The notes under the pieces: model-generated | Told to the model about the DNA's origin: nothing | Seen by the model: the letters and a program-made list of their open reading frames with translations, nothing else | The model's database searches: none | Shown here: positions 50,006 to 61,974 of the stretch, in pieces | How positions within the stretch are numbered: the first letter of the stretch is position 1 | Layout: each line of letters starts with the position of its first letter | Translations under genes and position numbers: made by a program | Sequence record: OZ346187.1 | Length of the DNA: 64,000 nucleotides | DNA from: a phage | Direction: 5' to 3' (one strand)

Positions 50006-50302
50006 TCAAGACTTTTTAGTCTTTCTTGGAGAGCTTTTTGTTGATCTTTTCCTTTTGTGGTAGATTCCAAGTGCAGCGTTTTCTTGGGCGCACGTTTTAA
50101 CAGTTCTCAGAGAAGAACTTTCAGCTTTAGGCAGGTTTAACTCCCACCAACCGAGCCAGTAAAGTTCTGATTCCGACAGCTGCTCAGATTCAGCCTTCCG
50201 ATACAATGATTGCATACCTCTAATGATGTCGTCCAGAGGTGTATCGAATACAAAAGCTGTCTTATCAAATTTCTCTTTTACAGGTTTCTTAGCCATGCTC
50301 AC
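50006..50302 (-). CDS. hypothetical protein
   Basis: 98-aa ORF, basic C-terminus. Confidence 0.4.
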   Translation of the reverse strand: MSMAKKPVKEKFDKTAFVFDTPLDDIIRGMQSLYRKAESEQLSESELYWLGWWELNLPKAESSSLRTVKTCAQENAALGIYHKRKRSTKSSPRKTKKS

Positions 50303-51173
50303 CTCTCACACAATCATCCACTGACTTCATAAACTCTTGCACCCAAAGTGCCCCTATTTGAGGAACTATGGCGTTACCGAAGCCTTTGTGGCGAGACAAT
50401 CCCATTGGGGTGGATAGCCCATCAACCAACAAGGGAATGCCGGGTTCAGGAAGTTTACGCCATTTTCCGTCTCGGCATAGATACTGTCTTGTATGCTCCC
50501 ACACCCGTAATACATCCTCACCTGCTCCCACAGATTCCCAGGACTTAATGACTTCCTGCCAGTTGCTAAGCGTTGTTGCTTGCGCCTTTCCATCGCTTCC
50601 TGAGATCTGCACCCTACCTGAGTTACCGTAGGGGTTAACCACGTTGCTAACTGCCCCGAAGTAAAGTCGTTCGCGGCGGTGCGGGGCGTTGAGGATTGCA
50701 GCATTAAGTATGGAAGCCCCGAAGCTGTAACCAGCGTTTTCCATTTCATTCTGCATATCGTCGAGCCATCCGGATTCAATCGCTTTTGCAACCTGCTCTC
50801 CAAACATGAACTCAGGTTTAAGCTGTTTAACGAGCCGGAGGTATGTTGGTGCAAGATGTCTTGGGTCAAATTTTCCACGTTGCTTACCTGCTTGAGAGAA
50901 AGGTTGGCAGCACGGAGATCCTGTGCATACCGACCAAGTTTCTGGAATGCCAGCAAGTTTCAAGGCCAAAGGCCATCCACCTATACCAGCGAAGAAGTGC
51001 CACTGTGTGAAACCTCTAAGATCTTCTACAGTAACCTCTGTAATAGAACGATCATCCACCTCGCCTTGAGGAAGTAGTCCTAAAGATATTAGATTCTTCA
51101 ACCAAGCAACTGCATCTTTATCATTGTCATTGTAGTATACCACACTTAATTCTCCAAATACTGATGTATCCAA
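50289..51173 (-). CDS. cytosine-5 DNA methyltransferase
   Basis: Motif I FAGIGG, motif IV GSPCCQPFSQAG, motif VI-like FGEQV, motif VIII-like HRRERL, motif X-like GFGNAIV. Confidence 0.7.
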   Translation of the reverse strand: MDTSVFGELSVVYYNDNDKDAVAWLKNLISLGLLPQGEVDDRSITEVTVEDLRGFTQWHFFAGIGGWPLALKLAGIPETWSVCTGSPCCQPFSQAGKQRGKFDPRHLAPTYLRLVKQLKPEFMFGEQVAKAIESGWLDDMQNEMENAGYSFGASILNAAILNAPHRRERLYFGAVSNVVNPYGNSGRVQISGSDGKAQATTLSNWQEVIKSWESVGAGEDVLRVWEHTRQYLCRDGKWRKLPEPGIPLLVDGLSTPMGLSRHKGFGNAIVPQIGALWVQEFMKSVDDCVRGEHG

Positions 51174-51661
51174 GAAAAGTCAGTCTTCCATTCCGGAACC
51201 TTGCTAAGCTCCCGCCACTCTGCAAAGCAGTCTCGATAATAAGCCTCTGCCATGCCCTTGGTGATCTTATTCACCTTAGCCAACTGATTAACTGCCTGAG
51301 CATACTTTCCACGGATATTTGCTAACCCAGGGTGCACCGATGTGTGACAATCCGGGCACAACGCTATCAGTCCGACAAGACGGATCACTCCATCTTCGAA
51401 AGTGTAAAGTTCATGACACTCCACTGGGTGTTTGCTGCCCTTACCGCCGCACACCTCACAAGTGTAGTTGGCTTCTCTGTAGCACTTCTTACGGATCTTA
51501 TCCCACTCACTCTTCTTCACAGCGTTTCGGAGGTTATTATACCAAGCTGTTTCTGGGATCAGTTGCACAATAAGCCTGCGTTCAGACTTCATTAAACGTC
51601 CGTCTTCCACGTGTTCTCCCTCATTCAAAGAAATGGGTGCGAGGGCAGGAACCTGCCTCAC
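51146..51661 (-). CDS. zinc-binding protein, possibly HNH-like nuclease
   Basis: CEVCGG...ECHELY...LCPDCHTSVH cysteine/histidine pattern. Confidence 0.3.
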   Translation of the reverse strand: MRQVPALAPISLNEGEHVEDGRLMKSERRLIVQLIPETAWYNNLRNAVKKSEWDKIRKKCYREANYTCEVCGGKGSKHPVECHELYTFEDGVIRLVGLIALCPDCHTSVHPGLANIRGKYAQAVNQLAKVNKITKGMAEAYYRDCFAEWRELSKVPEWKTDFSWIHQYLEN

Positions 51662-52485: not shown

Positions 52486-53769
52486 TCATTCCAGCACCTC
52501 CCAAGTGTCTGGGTTAACATTCCGGACGCAGATACCGACAGGGAATTGGTAGTTGTTGTCTTCTGTCCTTGCTTGATATTTGAAGGTGACAAACTTGCCG
52601 ATCATTTCCTGCATTCTGTCATAGCTACGCTCCTCGTGCGTACCTTTCATCTTCATTTTAACAACAACACCTTCCTTGTCAACACAGATAAGAACACCTT
52701 CATCATTCTTATCTTTCTCAACGTCAATAACTTTCACCTCTGCGTCGTTGAACTTTTTCCATTTCAATGCTTCAGATGTTCGCTGACCATACTCATATTT
52801 ACCGCAGAAATTACGCATGATAGTACCTTCATATCCTTCGGACATGAATATACCAACAGATTCTTCGCAATGATCAACTGTGTACGCAAGCTCTGCGTCA
52901 ACAACCTTGATATGATCAAGCATCAGAGTGGTAACGGTATCCTCTGCATCCATAAGATCCTTGCAGCGTCCAGACTCTGTTTCTGGATCCCACCACACCT
53001 TGTCGCTAGGAATATCAAAAATGTGATACTCCAGATCGTAGCTACAGTATCCACCGTAACGCAAATCATCACGAACAGGCTCAACATCGACAGGAATATC
53101 TACCTTGTTGAAGTTTTTGTATGTTGATAAGCCTGCCTTAATTGCTGCATGACGGCGTTTTTTATCTGCCTCATAGTCTTTATCGATCTCGGCCTGAATC
53201 TCTTCCTGTGTGCGCCACCGTTTAGCAAGAGACACTATTTTCTGCAAAGGAAGACCATGAATGTATAGTTCCCCATCAAGTTGTTTAATCCCAGTGGTAG
53301 AATGGAAAGAACGAAGTTGCTCTAAAAGCTTTCCTTGAATAGGGTAGGACTTATTACCACGGGAAATAAATTTAGGCTCACCATTTTGGAAAACAACAAG
53401 CAGACGAAGGCCATCTAACTTACGCAAGATCCAGCAAGGTAATTTAAGTGCCTTGCCACGCTTCAGGTAGTCATGCACCAGCATAGGTAAAAGATCAACA
53501 CCCTGCTCGCAATCTTCCATGTTTTCAACATACCCCAGACGGACTTGTTTTTCCCACTTGCTGATAGCCTCAAGCTCGGCCTGTTGCTCAGCTGTAGTCT
53601 CGTTGGCACGACCTACGTTTTTAGGTGTGCATACCGTCTCTTTGTACTGCAATTTACCGTCAAGCTTGCCAAACTCTACGATAACCTTTTCGCCATCAGT
53701 GAATACTTTCCACTGTTGGTAGCTGCCATCTTTGTTCAGTGCGTACAGTGTTGTTTTGATTTGATGCAT
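52486..53769 (-). CDS. ATP-dependent DNA ligase
   Basis: Nucleotidyltransferase motif I KLDGLR (KxDGxR); 427 aa. Confidence 0.65.
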   Translation of the reverse strand: MHQIKTTLYALNKDGSYQQWKVFTDGEKVIVEFGKLDGKLQYKETVCTPKNVGRANETTAEQQAELEAISKWEKQVRLGYVENMEDCEQGVDLLPMLVHDYLKRGKALKLPCWILRKLDGLRLLVVFQNGEPKFISRGNKSYPIQGKLLEQLRSFHSTTGIKQLDGELYIHGLPLQKIVSLAKRWRTQEEIQAEIDKDYEADKKRRHAAIKAGLSTYKNFNKVDIPVDVEPVRDDLRYGGYCSYDLEYHIFDIPSDKVWWDPETESGRCKDLMDAEDTVTTLMLDHIKVVDAELAYTVDHCEESVGIFMSEGYEGTIMRNFCGKYEYGQRTSEALKWKKFNDAEVKVIDVEKDKNDEGVLICVDKEGVVVKMKMKGTHEERSYDRMQEMIGKFVTFKYQARTEDNNYQFPVGICVRNVNPDTWEVLE

Positions 53770-54038
53770 TACTCGGCCTCTTCCTTAAAAATTTTAAACA
53801 TCTCTTCTTTACTCATTACCAACCAGTCTCCCATAAAGTCAACTAACCAATCTCCCTGGTACAAAACCAAGTTGCCAAACGGCTCAACAAGCTCACACAT
53901 GCGACGAATATCTCTGGTCCGAACAGGTGACGATGTAAACACACCTGTATCAATCCACCGTTGCAGATCAGATACTGATGAAGAGCTTCCATCAAACTGG
54001 TGTGCTTCTACAGGTTTAGCAAGATTAAATAACGGCAT
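53769..54038 (-). CDS. hypothetical protein
   Basis: 89-aa ORF. Confidence 0.4.
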   Translation of the reverse strand: MPLFNLAKPVEAHQFDGSSSSVSDLQRWIDTGVFTSSPVRTRDIRRMCELVEPFGNLVLYQGDWLVDFMGDWLVMSKEEMFKIFKEEAE

Positions 54039-54333
54039 TGCAGTCCTCCTTCTGTAGTAGGTCTTTTATAGGATAAACAAGTAAGTGTGGATCGGAATAA
54101 CGTATAGTCCTATTCTGCCATACTATGAACTTTATTACAACCAAATTTACAATATCTTTATCACCATGTAGCCCAACACACACATTTGTCCATATTTTGT
54201 GGTTGAAGATCTTGCTATCGATGTAGATTTTAGTGTCAAACTTATCTTCCATTCTACCTATAAGTTTGATCAGCTCCTTCATCTGGTCGCCAAACACAGC
54301 ATCTTTTTCAAGATCTCTGGAATGCTTGTACAT
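54025..54333 (-). CDS. hypothetical protein
   Basis: 102-aa ORF. Confidence 0.4.
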   Translation of the reverse strand: MYKHSRDLEKDAVFGDQMKELIKLIGRMEDKFDTKIYIDSKIFNHKIWTNVCVGLHGDKDIVNLVVIKFIVWQNRTIRYSDPHLLVYPIKDLLQKEDCNAVI

Positions 54334-54395
54334 AACTAACTACCTCACTGCATACTTTCCATAATAAGTAAAGCCGGGTAATCCCGGCTATGTTG

Positions 54396-55109
54396 TTAAA
54401 TATACTCTGTTACATCCTTGAAGCTCGAAGGCTTCATAATCTTACCTTTACTGTCAAGGAATATAATAGCTTTATTACCGTTGTAGAACTCCTCTTTAGC
54501 AACGAAACCTTCGTAGCGACCACCAAAACGACGCTCAAGATCTTCAATCTCTAACTCTATGAGCAATTCAGTAGACATATCTGCACTGGCACCGTGAGAA
54601 TATCGTAGATGGTTGATCCGTGCAAACTTGCTGTCATTAGATTTGAGAACCTTCCGCATCATCCCACACACATCGCCGCGAAGCTGGAACAGCAAAGCTG
54701 TTGACAACTCCGCTAAGCGGTAAGCTGACGCTCTTTGCTTGGATGTGTTTTTCGCAGCGATCAGTGTATCATAGAACTCACCGATCTTGAACTTAAGACC
54801 TCGTGGATTATCAAACAGGTTTGACCACTTTTCGTGATTATCATTAACAAGATAAGCGGCATAACTTGTGACAACGTGAAGATCGCAGGCCTCTTTTAGC
54901 AGGTGATCTCCACCATCACCTTTCTCCAGCTCTTCCAAAACCTCATTGAACTCTTCCTCAATGAAGCTAAGCTGTAATTCGAATGGTGTGTATGATTTTT
55001 TCACTTTAGCTGCCACACGGTTCCAGTTTTCCACCCAGTTGGCAGACCAAAGGTAGTTTTCAGGCTGAGACAGTTTTTCCAGGTTGTCGATCAGTTTAGT
55101 ATTCAGCAT
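54396..55109 (-). CDS. putative MazG-like nucleotide pyrophosphohydrolase
   Basis: EEEFNEVLEELEKGDGGDHLLKEACDLHVV resembles the MazG EExxE...E..D metal-binding helix pair. Confidence 0.35.
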   Translation of the reverse strand: MLNTKLIDNLEKLSQPENYLWSANWVENWNRVAAKVKKSYTPFELQLSFIEEEFNEVLEELEKGDGGDHLLKEACDLHVVTSYAAYLVNDNHEKWSNLFDNPRGLKFKIGEFYDTLIAAKNTSKQRASAYRLAELSTALLFQLRGDVCGMMRKVLKSNDSKFARINHLRYSHGASADMSTELLIELEIEDLERRFGGRYEGFVAKEEFYNGNKAIIFLDSKGKIMKPSSFKDVTEYI

Positions 55110-55122
55110 TGAAGGTCTCCTT

Positions 55123-55884
55123 TTAAAGTTCCATAAAGTTTTCTACAGTTTCAATAAATGCTTTATCAGAGAAAGCGTCAACAGCACCGTTAAACCATAC
55201 AGGGATCCCGCGATCCTCATATTGATAAAGGTCGCTACGTGAAATGCCACTTCCATCTGCACTCTGCGAGTCATACTTGTTTACAATCAGCAGTTTTGTG
55301 CCTTTACAAGTAGCAGGAAACAATTCCCAGTTAAAATTAATAACTGTGTTAGAACAACCTACTAGGATCACCATATCATTGCTTGTGAGAGATGTCAACA
55401 GGTCATACATGTCTGTATACTTAGGAGCAACCTCACCGAAGAACACTACATTGGGCTTAACCCAGGTATACTTGCCTGTATCTACCTCCGTGTATCCGAT
55501 ATTTTTAATTACATCATTACCTTCAGCATCTTCGTAGGTGATTTCAGGCAAATACCCGTGGACATGTAAAATATCTTCATGTTTTACACCAGCACGCTCC
55601 AGCAAATCATCTACATTGGTGGTAAGGTTGATCACACGACCAGACCAGCGGGAATACCACTCAGCGATCCGAAGATGTGCAAGGTTAGGATCAACACTGC
55701 CCAGAGCTACACGACGTGCATTGTAAAAGTCATGCACCTTATAGTAATTCTTGGCAAAGGTGTGAATGTTGCACACCTCATCGATGCTGAAATTCTCCCA
55801 CATTGCAGTGCTACCAGATCGGAAAGTGGGAATACCAGATTCAGCGCTCAAACCAGCACCGGAGATAATAATCAGTCGTCGCAT
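55123..55884 (-). CDS. Sir2-like NAD-dependent enzyme lacking the zinc ribbon
   Basis: GAGLSAESGIPTFRSG, TTNVDDLLERAG, HVHGY sirtuin motifs; no CxxC...CxxC zinc module. Confidence 0.7.
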   Translation of the reverse strand: MRRLIIISGAGLSAESGIPTFRSGSTAMWENFSIDEVCNIHTFAKNYYKVHDFYNARRVALGSVDPNLAHLRIAEWYSRWSGRVINLTTNVDDLLERAGVKHEDILHVHGYLPEITYEDAEGNDVIKNIGYTEVDTGKYTWVKPNVVFFGEVAPKYTDMYDLLTSLTSNDMVILVGCSNTVINFNWELFPATCKGTKLLIVNKYDSQSADGSGISRSDLYQYEDRGIPVWFNGAVDAFSDKAFIETVENFMEL

Positions 55885-55892
55885 AAGTGTCC

Positions 55893-56243
55893 TCAGTAGA
55901 TGTTTTGTTTAATCTCTATTCCAAACTTCTTGAATGAGTCAGCAGCAAGCATAAATTTACGAGCTGCCGATGGATTAGAAGTATGCACGAAAATAATCAC
56001 GTTGTCAATAAGTGGTGGCTTTCCGAATACAAGTTTCTCCTCTAGCGCAGAGAAGCAGTCGTACCCTTCAAGCACTTCACCTAGATCATTGTCAAAATAC
56101 CACTCAGATACGCGTCTGTAGAGCTTTCTCTTATCATTAAGAAAATCCATAAACTCAGAAGAATTCTTTAGCCACAGAGCGTCTGGGAGTCCATAATCTG
56201 ACGGATCTCTAAAATCATCAAGCCACACAATCCACTTCTTCAT
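55893..56243 (-). CDS. hypothetical protein
   Basis: 116-aa ORF between Sir2-like and RNA-ligase-like genes. Confidence 0.4.
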   Translation of the reverse strand: MKKWIVWLDDFRDPSDYGLPDALWLKNSSEFMDFLNDKRKLYRRVSEWYFDNDLGEVLEGYDCFSALEEKLVFGKPPLIDNVIIFVHTSNPSAARKFMLAADSFKKFGIEIKQNIY

Positions 56244-57175
56244 TGCATATAGTCCTCGTTGTGGAAATAGTAGTCCAGTATCTCACGACGCTCCTGCTCT
56301 AATAAGCAATTCCACACATCTTCTGTATAGTTGCTACGAATAAATTTTACCATACCGTAAAACTCTTCGTCAACACGTTTAAAGATATCATCATCCCAAA
56401 TCTTCCAAGCTTTACCCCTCATTACTGCCTTCTGTGCCAGATAGTATGGAGACTTGATCTTCAGCTGCAGATCATAAGGGTAGTAAGGCTTACGAATCAT
56501 ATACCCTTCACCTCTTGTTTCTGCAGCTAATTCTTTTGCATAGCTGAACGGAATTTCACGCACAGTGTTAGGACGTTTTGCACCAAGGTATTTGGCAATC
56601 CCATCTAAAGCTGCTTCTGGTAGCATTATTCCAGAATCATTATATCTGCAACCTATCAAATATGCGCCATGGTCTTCTTGAACAATATGCGGATCTGAAG
56701 GGTGACAAATTTCAAACATGAATGTCATGTTTTCATTGCCCATAACCTTCTTGATAAGATCTAAATTACCACATTGCTCTTGGATGGTTTCCTTTGCAAG
56801 GTTACAATATGGAGAATCAAGAGACCCGGTTGTTGAGAACAATAGGTCACCTTTATGAGATGATACCACACCAAGGAATCCGTTCTTTTTCTCTACCGCA
56901 GTCACAAGCTTATTGTCAGGCAGGTTGGTGGAGTTTTCTCCCAAGTTAAACACTTTTGTGAAGGGCCATGCCACAACATTTCCTTCATTACCTACAACAA
57001 TGCCTCGGCACTCCAGTAAACGAGGGGACAAATGCCATAAATTGTTGTAAAATACTTTTCTAGCATATTTATAGATCTTTAACCCGAGATCTGGGTAATA
57101 CCTACTGGTTGCAAGACCTTTGTCAACTAGGTCGTCTGCATTAAAATACTTCATTATATGTTCCTCATTTGTCAT
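56240..57175 (-). CDS. putative RNA ligase (Rnl1-like nucleotidyltransferase)
   Basis: Motif I-like EKKNG, motif IV-like EGYMIR, motif V-like LKIKSP; likely start is the second Met (57154) after a GAGGAA RBS. Confidence 0.45.
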   Translation of the reverse strand: MTNEEHIMKYFNADDLVDKGLATSRYYPDLGLKIYKYARKVFYNNLWHLSPRLLECRGIVVGNEGNVVAWPFTKVFNLGENSTNLPDNKLVTAVEKKNGFLGVVSSHKGDLLFSTTGSLDSPYCNLAKETIQEQCGNLDLIKKVMGNENMTFMFEICHPSDPHIVQEDHGAYLIGCRYNDSGIMLPEAALDGIAKYLGAKRPNTVREIPFSYAKELAAETRGEGYMIRKPYYPYDLQLKIKSPYYLAQKAVMRGKAWKIWDDDIFKRVDEEFYGMVKFIRSNYTEDVWNCLLEQERREILDYYFHNEDYMQ

Positions 57176-57218
57176 TTTGTCAGTCTATCCTGCCACACAA
57201 ATAACTTAGTGTCAACAC

Positions 57219-57247
57219 TTGAAATTAACAAAACAGTTAGGTATACT
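57219..57247 (+). promoter_or_regulatory. sigma70-type promoter
   Basis: TTGAAA, 17-bp spacer, TATACT. Confidence 0.45.
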
Positions 57248-57275
57248 ACCGTTGAAATTAAAACGGAGGGTCGCT

Positions 57276-57686
57276 ATGTCTAAAATGCTATATATCGTGC
57301 GTGGTCTACCAGGGTCTGGCAAATCAACACTGGCAAATGCGCTATCTTTAGAGGGTCTGTATCCACATTTTGAGAACGACATGTTCTGGTATGACGATGA
57401 CGGCAATTACAACTGGGATGCAAGTAAAGTAACACTCGCAGCAAAATGGTGCAAAGATAACGTAGAAGATATGATGCGTATGGGATACGACCGTATCGTG
57501 GTAAGTAATACGTTTACAAAAGAAAAACATGTGCAGGAATATGTTGACATGGCAATCACTCATGGGTATAGTTATACCGTGATCGTGGTTGAAAACCGCC
57601 ACGGCAATAAAAGCATTCATGATGTTCCAGACAAGGTTGTGGATCGTATGGAACGCCAGCTTAAAAACTGCATTAAACTTAAATGA
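57276..57686 (+). CDS. P-loop kinase, polynucleotide-kinase-like
   Basis: Walker A GLPGSGKST; ATG at 57276 after ACGGAGGG; ORF track 57219-57686. Confidence 0.5.
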   Translation: MSKMLYIVRGLPGSGKSTLANALSLEGLYPHFENDMFWYDDDGNYNWDASKVTLAAKWCKDNVEDMMRMGYDRIVVSNTFTKEKHVQEYVDMAITHGYSYTVIVVENRHGNKSIHDVPDKVVDRMERQLKNCIKLK

Positions 57687-57693
57687 GGAATGT

Positions 57694-58248
57694 ATGAAAT
57701 ACTTTGTAACAAGCGACACACACTTTCTCCACCAGCGGGTCATGGAGTTTGATTCATGTCAAAAACACAGATCTCAGTATGATCACAATCTTGACAGTAT
57801 GAATGCGGGAATCATCACCAAGTGGAACTCTGTTGTGTCACCTGCAGACACTGTGTTCCACTTGGGAGATATTGCATGCACTAATGATAAGAATATCAAC
57901 AAATTGCTCCCAGATATTCTAAATATGTTGAACGGACATATTATTCTTGTTCGTGGCAACCATGACACAAGGACGACTGTCAAAATTATGAAAGAGTTCG
58001 GTCATGAGGTTGTAGATTATTACGAGCTTCGCCACAACAAGAATTTGATCTGTATGAGCCATTACCAGTTTGCAAAGTGGAACAGAAAGCCTCACGGATC
58101 AGTCCAACTGTTCGGTCATGCTCACGGAACCACACAACAGTTGTTTGGCAGGCAGCTTGATGTCGGTTGGGATGTGTGGGGGAGACTCTTACCATTAGAA
58201 GAGGCATACCGTATTGCAATGAGTTTTGATATTGACAGCAGGGAGTAA
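57694..58248 (+). CDS. calcineurin-like metallophosphoesterase
   Basis: SDTHF, GDI, GNHD metallophosphatase motifs; ATG at 57694 after GAGGAA; ORF track 57589-58248. Confidence 0.6.
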   Translation: MKYFVTSDTHFLHQRVMEFDSCQKHRSQYDHNLDSMNAGIITKWNSVVSPADTVFHLGDIACTNDKNINKLLPDILNMLNGHIILVRGNHDTRTTVKIMKEFGHEVVDYYELRHNKNLICMSHYQFAKWNRKPHGSVQLFGHAHGTTQQLFGRQLDVGWDVWGRLLPLEEAYRIAMSFDIDSRE

Positions 58249-58295: not shown

Positions 58296-58646
58296 ATGAA
58301 AGATGGGGATAAGCTGCTATATCTTAAAGTCCCCCTTGAAATACTATCTATGTCAAAAGTTTTGAATGACACAACTGGGGAGGTTGTTGTTCTTGACTTG
58401 TATGACAAGATCGTATACTGCTACCTGCACAACTGGTATAAGCTTGGAGGAAATTCACGCTTCACACCAAGCACAAGGAAAATTGCAGCAGATGTTGGGA
58501 TAAAGAAAACAAAAGCAGCAGCGTGCGTTAAAACTTTAGAATGTGCAGGAGTGGTTGAAACATCCACACAAGGGAGAGGTAAAAGATGCACATTTTCCAA
58601 AGTTTTGCCACCAGAAGAAGTTATTCGGATGTCAACAACTGGTTAG
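58296..58646 (+). CDS. hypothetical protein, possibly DNA-binding
   Basis: 116-aa ORF directly upstream of the iteron-like repeats. Confidence 0.35.
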   Translation: MKDGDKLLYLKVPLEILSMSKVLNDTTGEVVVLDLYDKIVYCYLHNWYKLGGNSRFTPSTRKIAADVGIKKTKAAACVKTLECAGVVETSTQGRGKRCTFSKVLPPEEVIRMSTTG

Positions 58647-61103: not shown

Positions 61104-61162
61104 TGTAAACATGGTCTCCCACCTTTTCTGGCGGCTAAGGTGTAAAAGAAAGCCACCCAGTG

Positions 61163-61237
61163 CCCTGTTAGCTTAGTGGATAAAGCAGCGGCCTTCTAAG
61201 CCGTTGACACTGGTTCGAGTCCAGTACGGGGTGCCAA
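61163..61237 (+). tRNA. tRNA-Arg (anticodon TCT)
   Basis: Hand-folded cloverleaf: acceptor GCCCTGT/ACGGGGT (with G.U pairs), anticodon loop CTTCTAA, T-loop GGTTCGAGTCC, CCA encoded. Confidence 0.65.
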
Positions 61238-61241
61238 ATTG

Positions 61242-61327
61242 GGGAGTTATCCCGTAGAGGTAGCGGTGTAGACTGTAAATCTATTGTCATTGCGACTCGG
61301 GTGGTTCGACTCCACCACTCCCCACCA
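61242..61327 (+). tRNA. tRNA-Tyr (anticodon GTA), long variable arm
   Basis: Acceptor GGGGAGT/ACTCCCC, anticodon loop CTGTAAA, T-arm GGTGG-TTCGACT-CCACC, CCA encoded. Confidence 0.65.
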
Positions 61328-61441
61328 AATTTATATTTTTAGATGCATAAATAATACAGATAATGGCATTGATATTTATCGTCGTTTATACTAGTCACTA
61401 ACTGCTCGAAAATCAGTGTCATTATCAGTATAATTTATAAA

Positions 61442-61532
61442 GGAGGGTAGGGAGCAATGGTGCTCAAGCGGTCTTGAAAACCGTCCCGTTGAGGATGACT
61501 CGATGATGGTTCGATTCCATTACTCTCCGCCA
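61442..61532 (+). tRNA. tRNA-Ser (anticodon TGA), long variable arm
   Basis: Acceptor GGAGGGT/ACTCTCC, D-stem GAGC/GCTC, anticodon loop CTTGAAA, T-loop GGTTCGATTCC, CCA encoded. Confidence 0.6.
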
Positions 61533-61630
61533 CATTGTTGACCTTGTAATTAAGCGAAAGCCGGAAGCAGAACCGGATTATCAAATGTTACAGTCGTCAT
61601 CGCCGACTAGCAACATGGTCAACATACTGA

Positions 61631-61729
61631 GCTAGGTAAGCCCTTTGGCAAGGGCGAGGATTTTTAATCCTGAAAATAGACGAGGTAGTCGTTGAATACA
61701 TAGGTGGTTCGATTCCATCACCTAGCACC
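61631..61729 (+). tRNA. atypical tRNA-like gene (~99 nt), anticodon ambiguous (most consistent with TTT)
   Basis: Perfect 7-bp acceptor GCTAGGT/ACCTAGC, D-arm GCCC-TTTGGCAA-GGGC, T-arm GGTGG-TTCGATT-CCATC; anticodon stem imperfect with loop TTTTTAA; ~29-nt extra region before the T-arm; 3' end ACC then T (CCA not fully encoded). Confidence 0.35.
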
Positions 61730-61734
61730 TTTTT

Positions 61735-61810
61735 GCTGATGTAGCACAATCGGTAGTGCAATTGATTTGTAATCAATAGGTTGTAGGTTCAAGTCCTGCC
61801 ATCAGCACCA
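61735..61810 (+). tRNA. tRNA-Thr (anticodon TGT)
   Basis: Acceptor GCTGATG/CATCAGC, D-arm GCAC-AATCGGTA-GTGC, anticodon stem ATTGA/TCAAT with loop TTTGTAA, CCA encoded. Confidence 0.7.
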
Positions 61811-61811
61811 A

Positions 61812-61886
61812 GGCCCTGTAGCTGGAAGGTTCAAGCAAGCGACTCATAATCGCCAGACGGTGGTTCAATTCCACCCAGGGCCACCA
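61812..61886 (+). tRNA. tRNA-Met (anticodon CAT; initiator, elongator or Ile-lysidine type not resolved)
   Basis: Acceptor GGCCCTG/CAGGGCC, anticodon loop CTCATAA, T-arm GGTGG-TTCAATT-CCACC, CCA encoded. Confidence 0.65.
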
Positions 61887-61897
61887 AATAGTAAATA

Positions 61898-61974
61898 CTC
61901 CGCGTAGCTCAGCTTGGTAGAGCGCCTGATTTGGGATCAGGAGGTCGAGTGTTCGAATCACTCCGTGGAGACCA
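61898..61974 (+). tRNA. tRNA-Pro (anticodon TGG)
   Basis: Acceptor CTCCGCG/CGTGGAG, D-arm GCTC-AGCTTGGTA-GAGC, anticodon stem CCTGA/TCAGG with loop TTTGGGA, T-arm GAGTG-TTCGAAT-CACTC, CCA encoded. Confidence 0.7.

Follow-up and report, generated by a model that had tools for sequence, protein, structure and literature searches.

A Candidate RNA End-Healing and Sealing Cluster with a Zinc-Less Sirtuin in an rV5-Like Phage of Escherichia coli

Six Genes on Either Side of a Divergent Gap

The 64,000-nucleotide stretch of phage DNA analysed here (sequence record OZ346187.1; hereafter the window) carries, between positions 54396 and 58248, six intact genes that probably equip the phage to mend broken RNA. 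The region shares 99.8% identity with Escherichia phage nomine, and the window belongs to a Vequintavirus, i.e., an rV5-like coliphage. The genes form two divergent units, and catalytic residues are kept in all six products. Read outward from the divergent gap, the minus-strand unit codes for an Rnl1-family RNA ligase, a cREC domain protein, a sirtuin and a MazG-like protein and is followed by a G+C-rich hairpin, while the plus-strand unit codes for a P-loop kinase and then a metallophosphoesterase (Table 1). A first-pass annotation of this DNA, made without database searches, had named five of these products, and each of the five is present with a significant family match; the sixth gene, encoding the cREC protein between the sirtuin and the ligase, had been overlooked. 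The cREC start overlaps the ligase stop by 4 nucleotides (nt) and the cREC stop overlaps nothing; the sirtuin and ligase genes lie on the same strand, 356 nt apart.

The open reading frames (ORFs) of that annotation stand, except for the upstream TTG starts of the kinase (57219) and the phosphoesterase (57589), in place of which ribosome-binding sites and published annotations favour ATG 57276 (Shine-Dalgarno sequence GGAGG) and ATG 57694, respectively. The ligase probably starts at ATG 57157 (Shine-Dalgarno sequence GAGGA), an alternative start at 57175 yielding 311 amino acids (aa). The divergent promoter region proposed in the first pass corresponds to the gap between the units, where promoter-like hexamers, as consensus matches only, face both ways: a sigma70-like TTGAAA-17-TATACT at 57219-57247 on the plus strand and, by eye, TTGACA (57215-57210), a 17-nt spacer and TGG-CAGGAT (57192-57187) on the minus strand. 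Transcription direction and GC skew both switch at about 57-58 kb, coinciding with this gap.

Table 1. Genes and signals of the cluster, with the matches supporting each assignment.
Feature	Position	Strand	Evidence
G+C-rich terminator-like hairpin	54372-54389	-	3' end of minus-strand unit; terminator scan; terminator annotated in phage Murica; T tail weak
MazG-superfamily (all-alpha nucleoside triphosphate (NTP) pyrophosphohydrolase) protein, 237 aa	54396-55109	-	phrog_671; fold
Zinc-less class III (CobB/SIRT5)-like sirtuin, 253 aa	55123-55884	-	PF02146 7e-28; phrog_2162 1.5e-108
cREC domain protein, 116 aa	55893-56243	-	PF20274 9e-14; phrog_1479 6e-33
Rnl1-family ATP-dependent RNA ligase, 305 aa	56240-57157	-	PF09511 (RNA_lig_T4_1) 1e-14; phrog_562 4e-65
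Divergent intergenic region with back-to-back promoter-like sequences	57158-57275		Consensus matches only
Polynucleotide-kinase-like P-loop kinase, 136 aa	57276-57686	+	AAA_33 1.6e-10; phrog_2071 4e-58; phrog_505 (polynucleotide kinase) 7e-10
Calcineurin-like binuclear metallophosphoesterase, 184 aa	57694-58248	+	Metallophos_2 1.5e-6; phrog_547 2e-52

The block matches 118 deposited phage genomes at 90-99.8% identity over at least 80% of a 4.7-kb query, and a block kept to this degree is no chance arrangement of ORFs. The best-annotated relatives, CarlMeissner/Bas48 and Murica, are Vequintaviruses, rV5-like myoviruses of E. coli; among the Vequintaviruses of the BASEL collection, CarlMeissner (99.6%), EmilHeitz and HeinrichReichert (both ~98.8%) and AlexBoehm (97.5% identity) all match the block.

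The grouping was regarded in the first pass as possibly not described as a unit, and this claim fails: a sirtuin-centred, NAD+-utilising RNA-repair neighbourhood with phage V5 as its prototype has been published as a computational prediction (Iyer, Burroughs, Anantharaman and Aravind, Viruses 2022, 14:1977; PMC9503650). The configuration concerned, the second of that work, is the Escherichia phage V5/Proteus phage Mydo type. The window shares with it the phage group, the sirtuin, the T4-like ligase, cREC, the nucleotide kinase, the MazG-superfamily protein and the calcineurin-like phosphoesterase; it has every defining feature, and nothing substantive differs. The same work proposed that the sirtuin removes an RNA 2'-phosphate with NAD+, in the manner of KptA/Tpt1, and the cRec domain and its operonic linkage to RNA ligases had been defined earlier (Iyer et al., Viruses 2021; PMC7824862). 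The observation made on the window is real and coherent, and both grouping and mechanism are already known as a prediction of 2021-2022. The survey reported below adds that the kinase, phosphoesterase and ligase are a widespread core, that the other three genes are lineage-specific and that the ligase is T4-Rnl1-like by sequence.

A Kinase, a Phosphoesterase and a Ligase as the Core

A profile of 28 sequences of the ligase family matches T4 Rnl1 (2c5u) at 1e-13; the profile was needed to reach it, a single-sequence search of the PDB sequences giving no match, and it finds T4 Rnl1 but not Trl1. The Rnl1 signature is present, with motif I (K90-x-N-G93), motifs III, IV and V and the upstream Arg, Lys and Phe. 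Residues R51, K68, F70, K90, G93, E149, E217, G218, K233 and K235 are invariant in the 28 sequences and align to T4 R54, K75, F77, K99, G102, E159, E227, G228, K240 and K242, respectively, which we take to be the positions found essential by mutagenesis in the Shuman laboratory. An AlphaFold2 (AF2) model of the ligase (model confidence, pLDDT, 91.8) retrieves T4 Rnl1, the ligase domain of fungal Trl1 (Trl1-LIG) and archaeal Rnl3 alike in Foldseek (~1e-12, TM score ~0.6). The alignment to 2c5u ends near residue 250 of 375, the C-terminal tRNA-specificity domain of the T4 enzyme having no detectable counterpart, and the protein scores 38.5 bits against the T4 RnlA equivalog TIGR02308, for which the cut-off is 242. 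A DNA ligase or a capping enzyme, either of which had been named in the first pass as an identity to be checked, was rejected: the protein aligns to T4 Rnl1 with all catalytic residues kept, and an ATP-dependent DNA ligase of 427 aa is encoded separately (52486-53769, minus strand).

The kinase retains its Walker A motif (G10-x-x-G-x-GKST18), D35, R108 and H115 and carries an ENRHGN...H-x-VP segment. Its best families are AAA_33 and polynucleotide kinase (PNK), and the other identities considered in the first pass, a deoxynucleoside monophosphate (dNMP) kinase or a shikimate kinase, were rejected in favour of a PNK-like enzyme. The phosphoesterase has all five metal-binding motifs of its class (D8-x-H10, G58-D59, G88-N-H-D91, H123, G141-H-x-H144), with conservation of at least 95% across 15 sequences; its closest solved relative is the uncharacterised Aquifex protein aq_1665 (1xm7; 5e-11), not C. 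thermocellum Pnkp or lambda phosphatase. A single family, phrog_8238, spans both proteins: its N-terminal part (positions 2-108) corresponds to the kinase and its C-terminal part (440-686) to the ligase.

Linkage was followed in 79 IMG/VR loci around ligase homologues (37-89% identity), where profiles were used to look for all six families. A kinase gene no more than 10 kb from the ligase was present in 74 of the 79 and a metallophosphoesterase gene at that distance in 62, both mostly directly beside it, and in about 12 viral contigs the kinase and the ligase are fused, kinase N-terminal, in one ORF of ~420 aa (L102 9530-10822, L110 6881-8176 and L119 9527-10822; also L104, L108, L109, L115, L116, L121 and L122). 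The contigs with the fusion have no homologous metallophosphoesterase within 10 kb. Over the same distance, the MazG-like gene accompanies the ligase in 12 loci, cREC in 11 and the sirtuin in 10. The kinase, phosphoesterase and ligase are thus a robust and widespread core, to which cREC, the sirtuin and the MazG-like protein have been added in a lineage-specific way. Family matches, the residues shared with T4 Rnl1 and linkage or fusion across unrelated contigs all support the first-pass suggestion that the core is a healing-and-sealing set split into separate genes.

In phage T4, Pnkp and Rnl1 repair tRNA-Lys cut by the PrrC anticodon nuclease. The core of the window would share with that pair 5'-kinase activity, 3' end-healing and Rnl1-family sealing, its kinase being of the same P-loop PNK class. 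The differences lie in the layout and in the phosphatase: the kinase of the window stands alone and the phosphatase is separate, whereas T4 Pnkp is a bifunctional kinase-phosphatase; the T4 phosphatase is a HAD DxDxT domain, whereas that of the window is a non-homologous binuclear metallophosphoesterase; and the window has cREC, sirtuin and MazG-like genes in addition. The cluster would work like the T4 pair without belonging to the Pnkp family. Bacterial Pnkp-Hen1 is a second point of comparison. The same three chemistries are described for it, including a calcineurin-type 2',3'-phosphoesterase (PMC2190708, PMC3675462), and the binuclear metallophosphoesterase of C. thermocellum Pnkp is described as healing a 2',3'-cyclic phosphate (PMC2190708). 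There, however, the kinase, metallophosphoesterase and ligase form one polypeptide, whereas the window has three genes and an Rnl1-type ligase; a scan of ten neighbouring proteins revealed neither Hen1 nor anything resembling a methyltransferase.

The ligase also goes by database names like "RNA ligase and tail fiber protein attachment catalyst", which would suit a protein whose main task is to attach tail fibres, the second activity of T4 gp63, and whose neighbours are unrelated enzymes of nucleotide metabolism. The name is, however, inherited from T4 gp63; every residue for nucleotidyl transfer is kept, the ligase has a PNK-like kinase and a phosphoesterase as fusion partners or neighbours, and its gene lies in the early/replication region and not among the tail genes. 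We find a tail-fibre function barely credible.

tRNA Genes Near the Cluster

Seven tRNA genes on the plus strand (61162-61974), 3 kb downstream of the repair genes, correspond to Arg(UCU), Tyr(GUA), Ser(UGA), an odd Lys-like gene, Thr(UGU), Met/Ile(CAU) and Pro(UGG). Known tRNA-cleaving systems attack several of these isoacceptor families, namely those for Lys, Tyr, Arg and Thr. That phage tRNA clusters are frequently nearby (tRNA genes are found no farther than 10 kb away in 44 of the 79 ligase loci) and that one gene of the window is odd, with a very long extra arm, could also mean that the repair genes help to mature the phage's own tRNAs or to control their quality, e.g., that of the tRNA-like gene at 61631-61729, rather than mending damage done by defences. 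Yet the other 35 loci have no tRNA gene within 10 kb, and tRNA maturation in bacteria and phages, as far as we know it, needs no kinase or ligase step; such a role is very improbable.

The atypical tRNA-like gene (61631-61729, plus strand) is 97-99 nt long, is given a four-base anticodon by ARAGORN and scores only 35.5 bits against the Rfam tRNA model; it is recorded as tRNA-Lys AAA in CarlMeissner and as tRNA-OTHER in Murica. Its cloverleaf has a 6-bp D stem with a 4-nt loop, an anticodon loop that contains UUU (Lys-like by eye) and an extra arm of ~30 nt (z -3.7). As tRNA-Lys(UUU) is the classic PrrC target, one may speculate that the gene supplies a nuclease-resistant replacement or a decoy.

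cREC, a Zinc-Less Sirtuin and a MazG-Like Protein

The sirtuin motifs read in the first pass are confirmed in the translation (GAGLSAESGIPTFRSG, TTNVDD and HVHG). The protein aligns best to CobB (1s5p) and human SIRT5 at ~3e-21, with the NAD motifs and the catalytic His109 aligned; GAGxS, TxNxD, the catalytic His and the class III Tyr54-x-x-Arg57 are kept, and 24 phage homologues show no variation at G9, A10, G11, S16, N90, D92, H109, Y54 and R57. It was rightly called zinc-less: there is no Cys between residues 110 and 145, where the CobB zinc site would fall, and no invariant Cys4 in the 24 homologues. The window protein thus keeps the NAD motifs, the His and the Tyr-x-x-Arg of CobB and SIRT5 and differs from them in having no Cys4 zinc module and in sitting among phage RNA-repair genes. 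NCBIfam CobB models score it at 104-123 bits against cut-offs of 243-320, and the NCBIfam search of the proteins of the module gave sub-threshold matches only. No Pfam, NCBIfam or PHROG match pointed to KptA/ART-fold homology among the six proteins.

Nor does the sirtuin resemble the SIR2 proteins of bacterial immunity. It matches none of the profiles of the defence NADases (ThsA, DSR, SIR2-HerA and SIR2-pAgo), and no PADLOC family was found at E <= 0.01 for the sirtuin, the ligase, cREC or the MazG-like protein. A phage-borne defence or superinfection-exclusion SIR2 system was accordingly rejected, the only SIR2 match being to Pfam SIR2 (PF02146).

The cREC protein scores 52 bits against PF20274 (cut-off 27), and a comparison of 12 homologues shows conservation of at least 95% for its receiver-type acidic residues D9, D10, D51 and D53 as well as for S92 and K96. 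The domain is a predicted cyclic phosphodiesterase, receiver-like, linked to RNA ligases and never to histidine kinases (Iyer et al.). The MazG-like protein matches only phrog_671 (6e-22) and has no Pfam hit of its own; its family profile finds no match among the PDB sequences. It was assigned to the MazG superfamily by fold and relatives, a helical bundle with the acidic metal-binding residues EExxE...ExxD being present. The fold is closest to dimeric dUTPases and is extended by a C-terminal beta-hairpin with an invariant GKxMKP; by this hairpin, and by its small divergent family (166 cluster representatives in 1.84 billion), it is set apart from MazG, HisE/PRA-PH and the dimeric dUTPases.

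The surroundings of 58 sirtuin homologues fall into several arrangements. In the rV5-like phages, the genes form the two divergent units described above; relatives of ~145 kb carry the metallophosphoesterase (MPE), ligase (Rnl), cREC, kinase (Kin), sirtuin (Sir2) and DNA ligase on one strand, in the order MPE-Rnl-cREC-Kin-Sir2-DNA ligase-...-MazG-like, so that the genes have stayed together through rearrangement; and a third group has no local cREC. In some 30 T5-like loci, the sirtuin is paired only with HAD_SAK_2, a "Swiss-army-knife" RNA-repair phosphatase; in phage T5 itself (L003 6651-7481) the pair is followed by two paralogous DUF7415 proteins, T5.106 and T5.107, DUF7415 being found four times among the sirtuin neighbours scanned. 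Two jumbo-phage contigs have the sirtuin beside the repair nucleotidyltransferase RlaP (L064) or beside an Rnl1-family ligase (L065), and in Streptomyces phage Comrade less than 5 kb holds the ligase, a PNK and a sirtuin, amid tRNAs and a transfer-messenger RNA (tmRNA). The tRNA cluster of Proteus phage 1 includes the cREC gene. The sirtuin thus associates with RNA end-processing enzymes generally, and not with this ligase in particular.

A Predicted Repair Pathway and Its Rivals

We consider that the cluster probably forms an rV5-type phage pathway of RNA end-healing and sealing, the likeliest substrates of which are tRNAs nicked by host ribonucleases; family membership, linkage and the analogy with T4 Pnkp/Rnl1 against PrrC are its basis. 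The P-loop kinase would phosphorylate the 5'-OH, the metallophosphoesterase would open and remove the 2',3'-cyclic phosphate to leave a 3'-OH, as in C. thermocellum Pnkp, with the cREC protein perhaps sharing or replacing this step as a cyclic phosphodiesterase, and the ligase would close the break through a Lys90-AMP intermediate like that of T4 Rnl1. The sirtuin may use NAD+ on a phosphate-bearing RNA end, e.g., to remove a 2'-phosphate as Tpt1/KptA does, which is the weakest step, and the MazG-like protein may clear nucleotide by-products or be merely a syntenic house-cleaning NTP pyrophosphatase. A counter-defence role for the cluster is inferred by analogy with T4.

For the sirtuin, Tpt1-like, NAD+-dependent removal of a 2'-phosphate appears, with low confidence, to be the likeliest single role. 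The chemistries run in parallel: in sirtuins, as in Tpt1, a nucleophile attacks C1'' of NAD+ and a His-activated 2''-OH attacks thereafter. His109 and the anion pocket formed by Tyr54 and Arg57 are conserved and compatible with this role; we reason that the Tyr-x-x-Arg pocket, which binds carboxylate acyl groups in SIRT5 and CobB, could bind a phosphate. Stated in full, the proposal is that the zinc-less sirtuin acts on RNA ends and not as a protein deacylase, and that it consumes NAD+ in removing a 2'-phosphate, whether terminal or internal, or in ADP-ribosylating it; the Tyr-x-x-Arg would hold the phosphate, the His would activate the ribose 2''-OH and cREC would supply the 2'-phosphate end. 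We hold this only tentatively and with considerable doubt. The fungal and plant pair Trl1 and Tpt1 is the template for such a step; it would share the kinase, the cyclic phosphodiesterase, a ligase of the Rnl1 clade and the proposed NAD+-dependent 2'-phosphate step, and the Trl1 ligase domain is among the top structural matches of the modelled ligase. The parallel is a proposed one of function only: the sirtuin is not homologous to Tpt1/KptA, and cREC is not a 2H phosphoesterase.

Several points weigh against a single pathway made of all six genes. The kinase-phosphatase-ligase core alone is a complete pathway, and since it is complete and its ligase resembles T4 Rnl1 and not Trl1, a Tpt1-like step is not obviously needed; T4 Rnl1 makes ordinary junctions. 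The cREC, sirtuin and MazG-like genes occur with the ligase only in enterobacterial myoviruses of 140-150 kb, and their adjacency could be an order inherited within one broad phage group, the loci compared being phylogenetically non-independent. In each of the three arrangements found among rV5-like phages and relatives of ~145 kb, the ATP-dependent DNA ligase gene is syntenic with the sirtuin and MazG-like genes. It is so to the same degree as the MazG-like gene, and part of the adjacency is therefore inherited gene order. In T5-like and phi92-like phages, sirtuin homologues at 45-57% identity occur without a neighbouring ligase gene; those of phi92-like phages stand alone, the ligase and cREC lying tens of kb away. 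The fold of the MazG-like protein rests on one good model out of five, and no biochemical or genetic work on the proteins of the cluster, the sirtuin clade or cREC was found in the literature.

In a narrower reading, the kinase, phosphoesterase and ligase, perhaps with cREC, would be the only repair unit, and the sirtuin and the MazG-like protein would be products of independent early genes kept by inherited order, the one modifying host or phage proteins as a deacylase or an ADP-ribosyltransferase and the other a dUTPase-like enzyme or a house-cleaner of (p)ppGpp or NTPs. The core is indeed widespread where the other three genes are missing, the nearest characterised relatives of the sirtuin, CobB and SIRT5, are deacylases whose catalytic set it has in full, and the dUTPase-like fold of the MazG-like protein would fit. 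The distance between the sirtuin and the ligase and cREC in phi92-like phages points the same way, as does the separation of the MazG-like gene from the sirtuin, in relatives, by the DNA ligase and other genes. The sirtuin nevertheless falls far below the CobB equivalog cut-offs and has no zinc module, which in its relatives helps to build the peptide-binding cleft and the loss of which speaks in favour of an RNA role. Moreover, its homologues sit, in separate lineages, beside at least three non-homologous RNA end-processing enzymes (cREC, HAD_SAK_2, RlaP and Rnl1), and we count the neighbours seen in other lineages, i.e., HAD_SAK_2, RlaP and the Rnl1-family ligase, in favour of the six-gene pathway. 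On balance, the narrower reading seems to us unlikely.

The first-pass annotation had also suggested, from the adjacent Sir2-like and MazG-like genes, a composite anti-defence island, its repair genes directed against anticodon nucleases and its sirtuin and MazG-like protein interfering separately with immune signals based on NAD+ or nucleotides. The company kept by the core elsewhere is suggestive. In 19 diverse contigs without a sirtuin (L074-L142), its flanks include NAMPT (3-4 cases), phosphoribosyl pyrophosphate (PRPP) synthetase (3), Macro (3), HAD_SAK_2 (2), cREC (1), the Thoeris inhibitor Tad3 (1) and DUF4326 (1), and in one further contig (L062) NAMPT lies directly upstream of a sirtuin homologue; RNA-repair and NAD/ADP-ribose genes therefore co-localise repeatedly. 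Such co-localisation, the Macro and NAMPT neighbours included, fits NAD-dependent RNA end processing with clearance of ADP-ribose and a loose anti-defence island equally well. Against the island, sirtuins consume NAD+ and would worsen its depletion, the sirtuin of the window matches no model of a defence-type SIR2 NADase, and a search of the window found no NAMPT homologue; we also know of no sirtuin that degrades signals of the cyclic ADP-ribose type. We regard the island as quite improbable.

Significance for Phage Counter-Defence

Defences that cleave tRNA are common in E. coli and include PrrC, RloC, PARIS, retron Eco7 and OLD. To our knowledge, T4 Pnkp/Rnl1 is essentially the sole phage repair answer to them to have been established experimentally. 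The rV5-type cluster would be a different and widespread solution, with a core present in many phage lineages and three unexplained accessory enzymes. If the sirtuin does act on RNA 2'-phosphates, sirtuin chemistry would extend to nucleic acids, and the protein, analogous to Tpt1 but with a sirtuin fold, would be the first sirtuin directed at nucleic acids and would represent a second, convergent route to 2'-phosphate removal. The value that remains after the earlier prediction is that of a well-defined and easily testable system, mainly as regards the activities of the sirtuin and cREC, and the public BASEL Vequintaviruses carry a near-identical block.

Neighbouring Genes and Related Records

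A search of the rest of the window found no second copies of the module families and no HAD_SAK or RlaP homologues. Replication and repair genes lie upstream on the minus strand (an exonuclease, the ATP-dependent DNA ligase and an endolysin), and two small conserved ORFs (53769-54038 and 54025-54333) separate the DNA ligase from the MazG-like gene. Farther along, a C5-cytosine DNA methyltransferase-like ORF (50289-51173, minus strand; by motif, with which the CarlMeissner annotation agrees) adjoins an HNH endonuclease gene (51146-51661, minus strand); because Murica carries only the HNH gene there, this spot is variable among Vequintaviruses. On the other side of the cluster, a helix-turn-helix (HTH) protein that bears the PHROGs name "replication initiation protein" is encoded at 58296-58646. 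The GC skew changes sign at ~18 kb and ~58 kb, with the cumulative minimum near 58 kb. Finally, some 18-25 GenBank records named "Campylobacter phage" (e.g., MG0656xx), unannotated, are 97-100% identical to the sequence and are probably mislabelled or contaminant assemblies.

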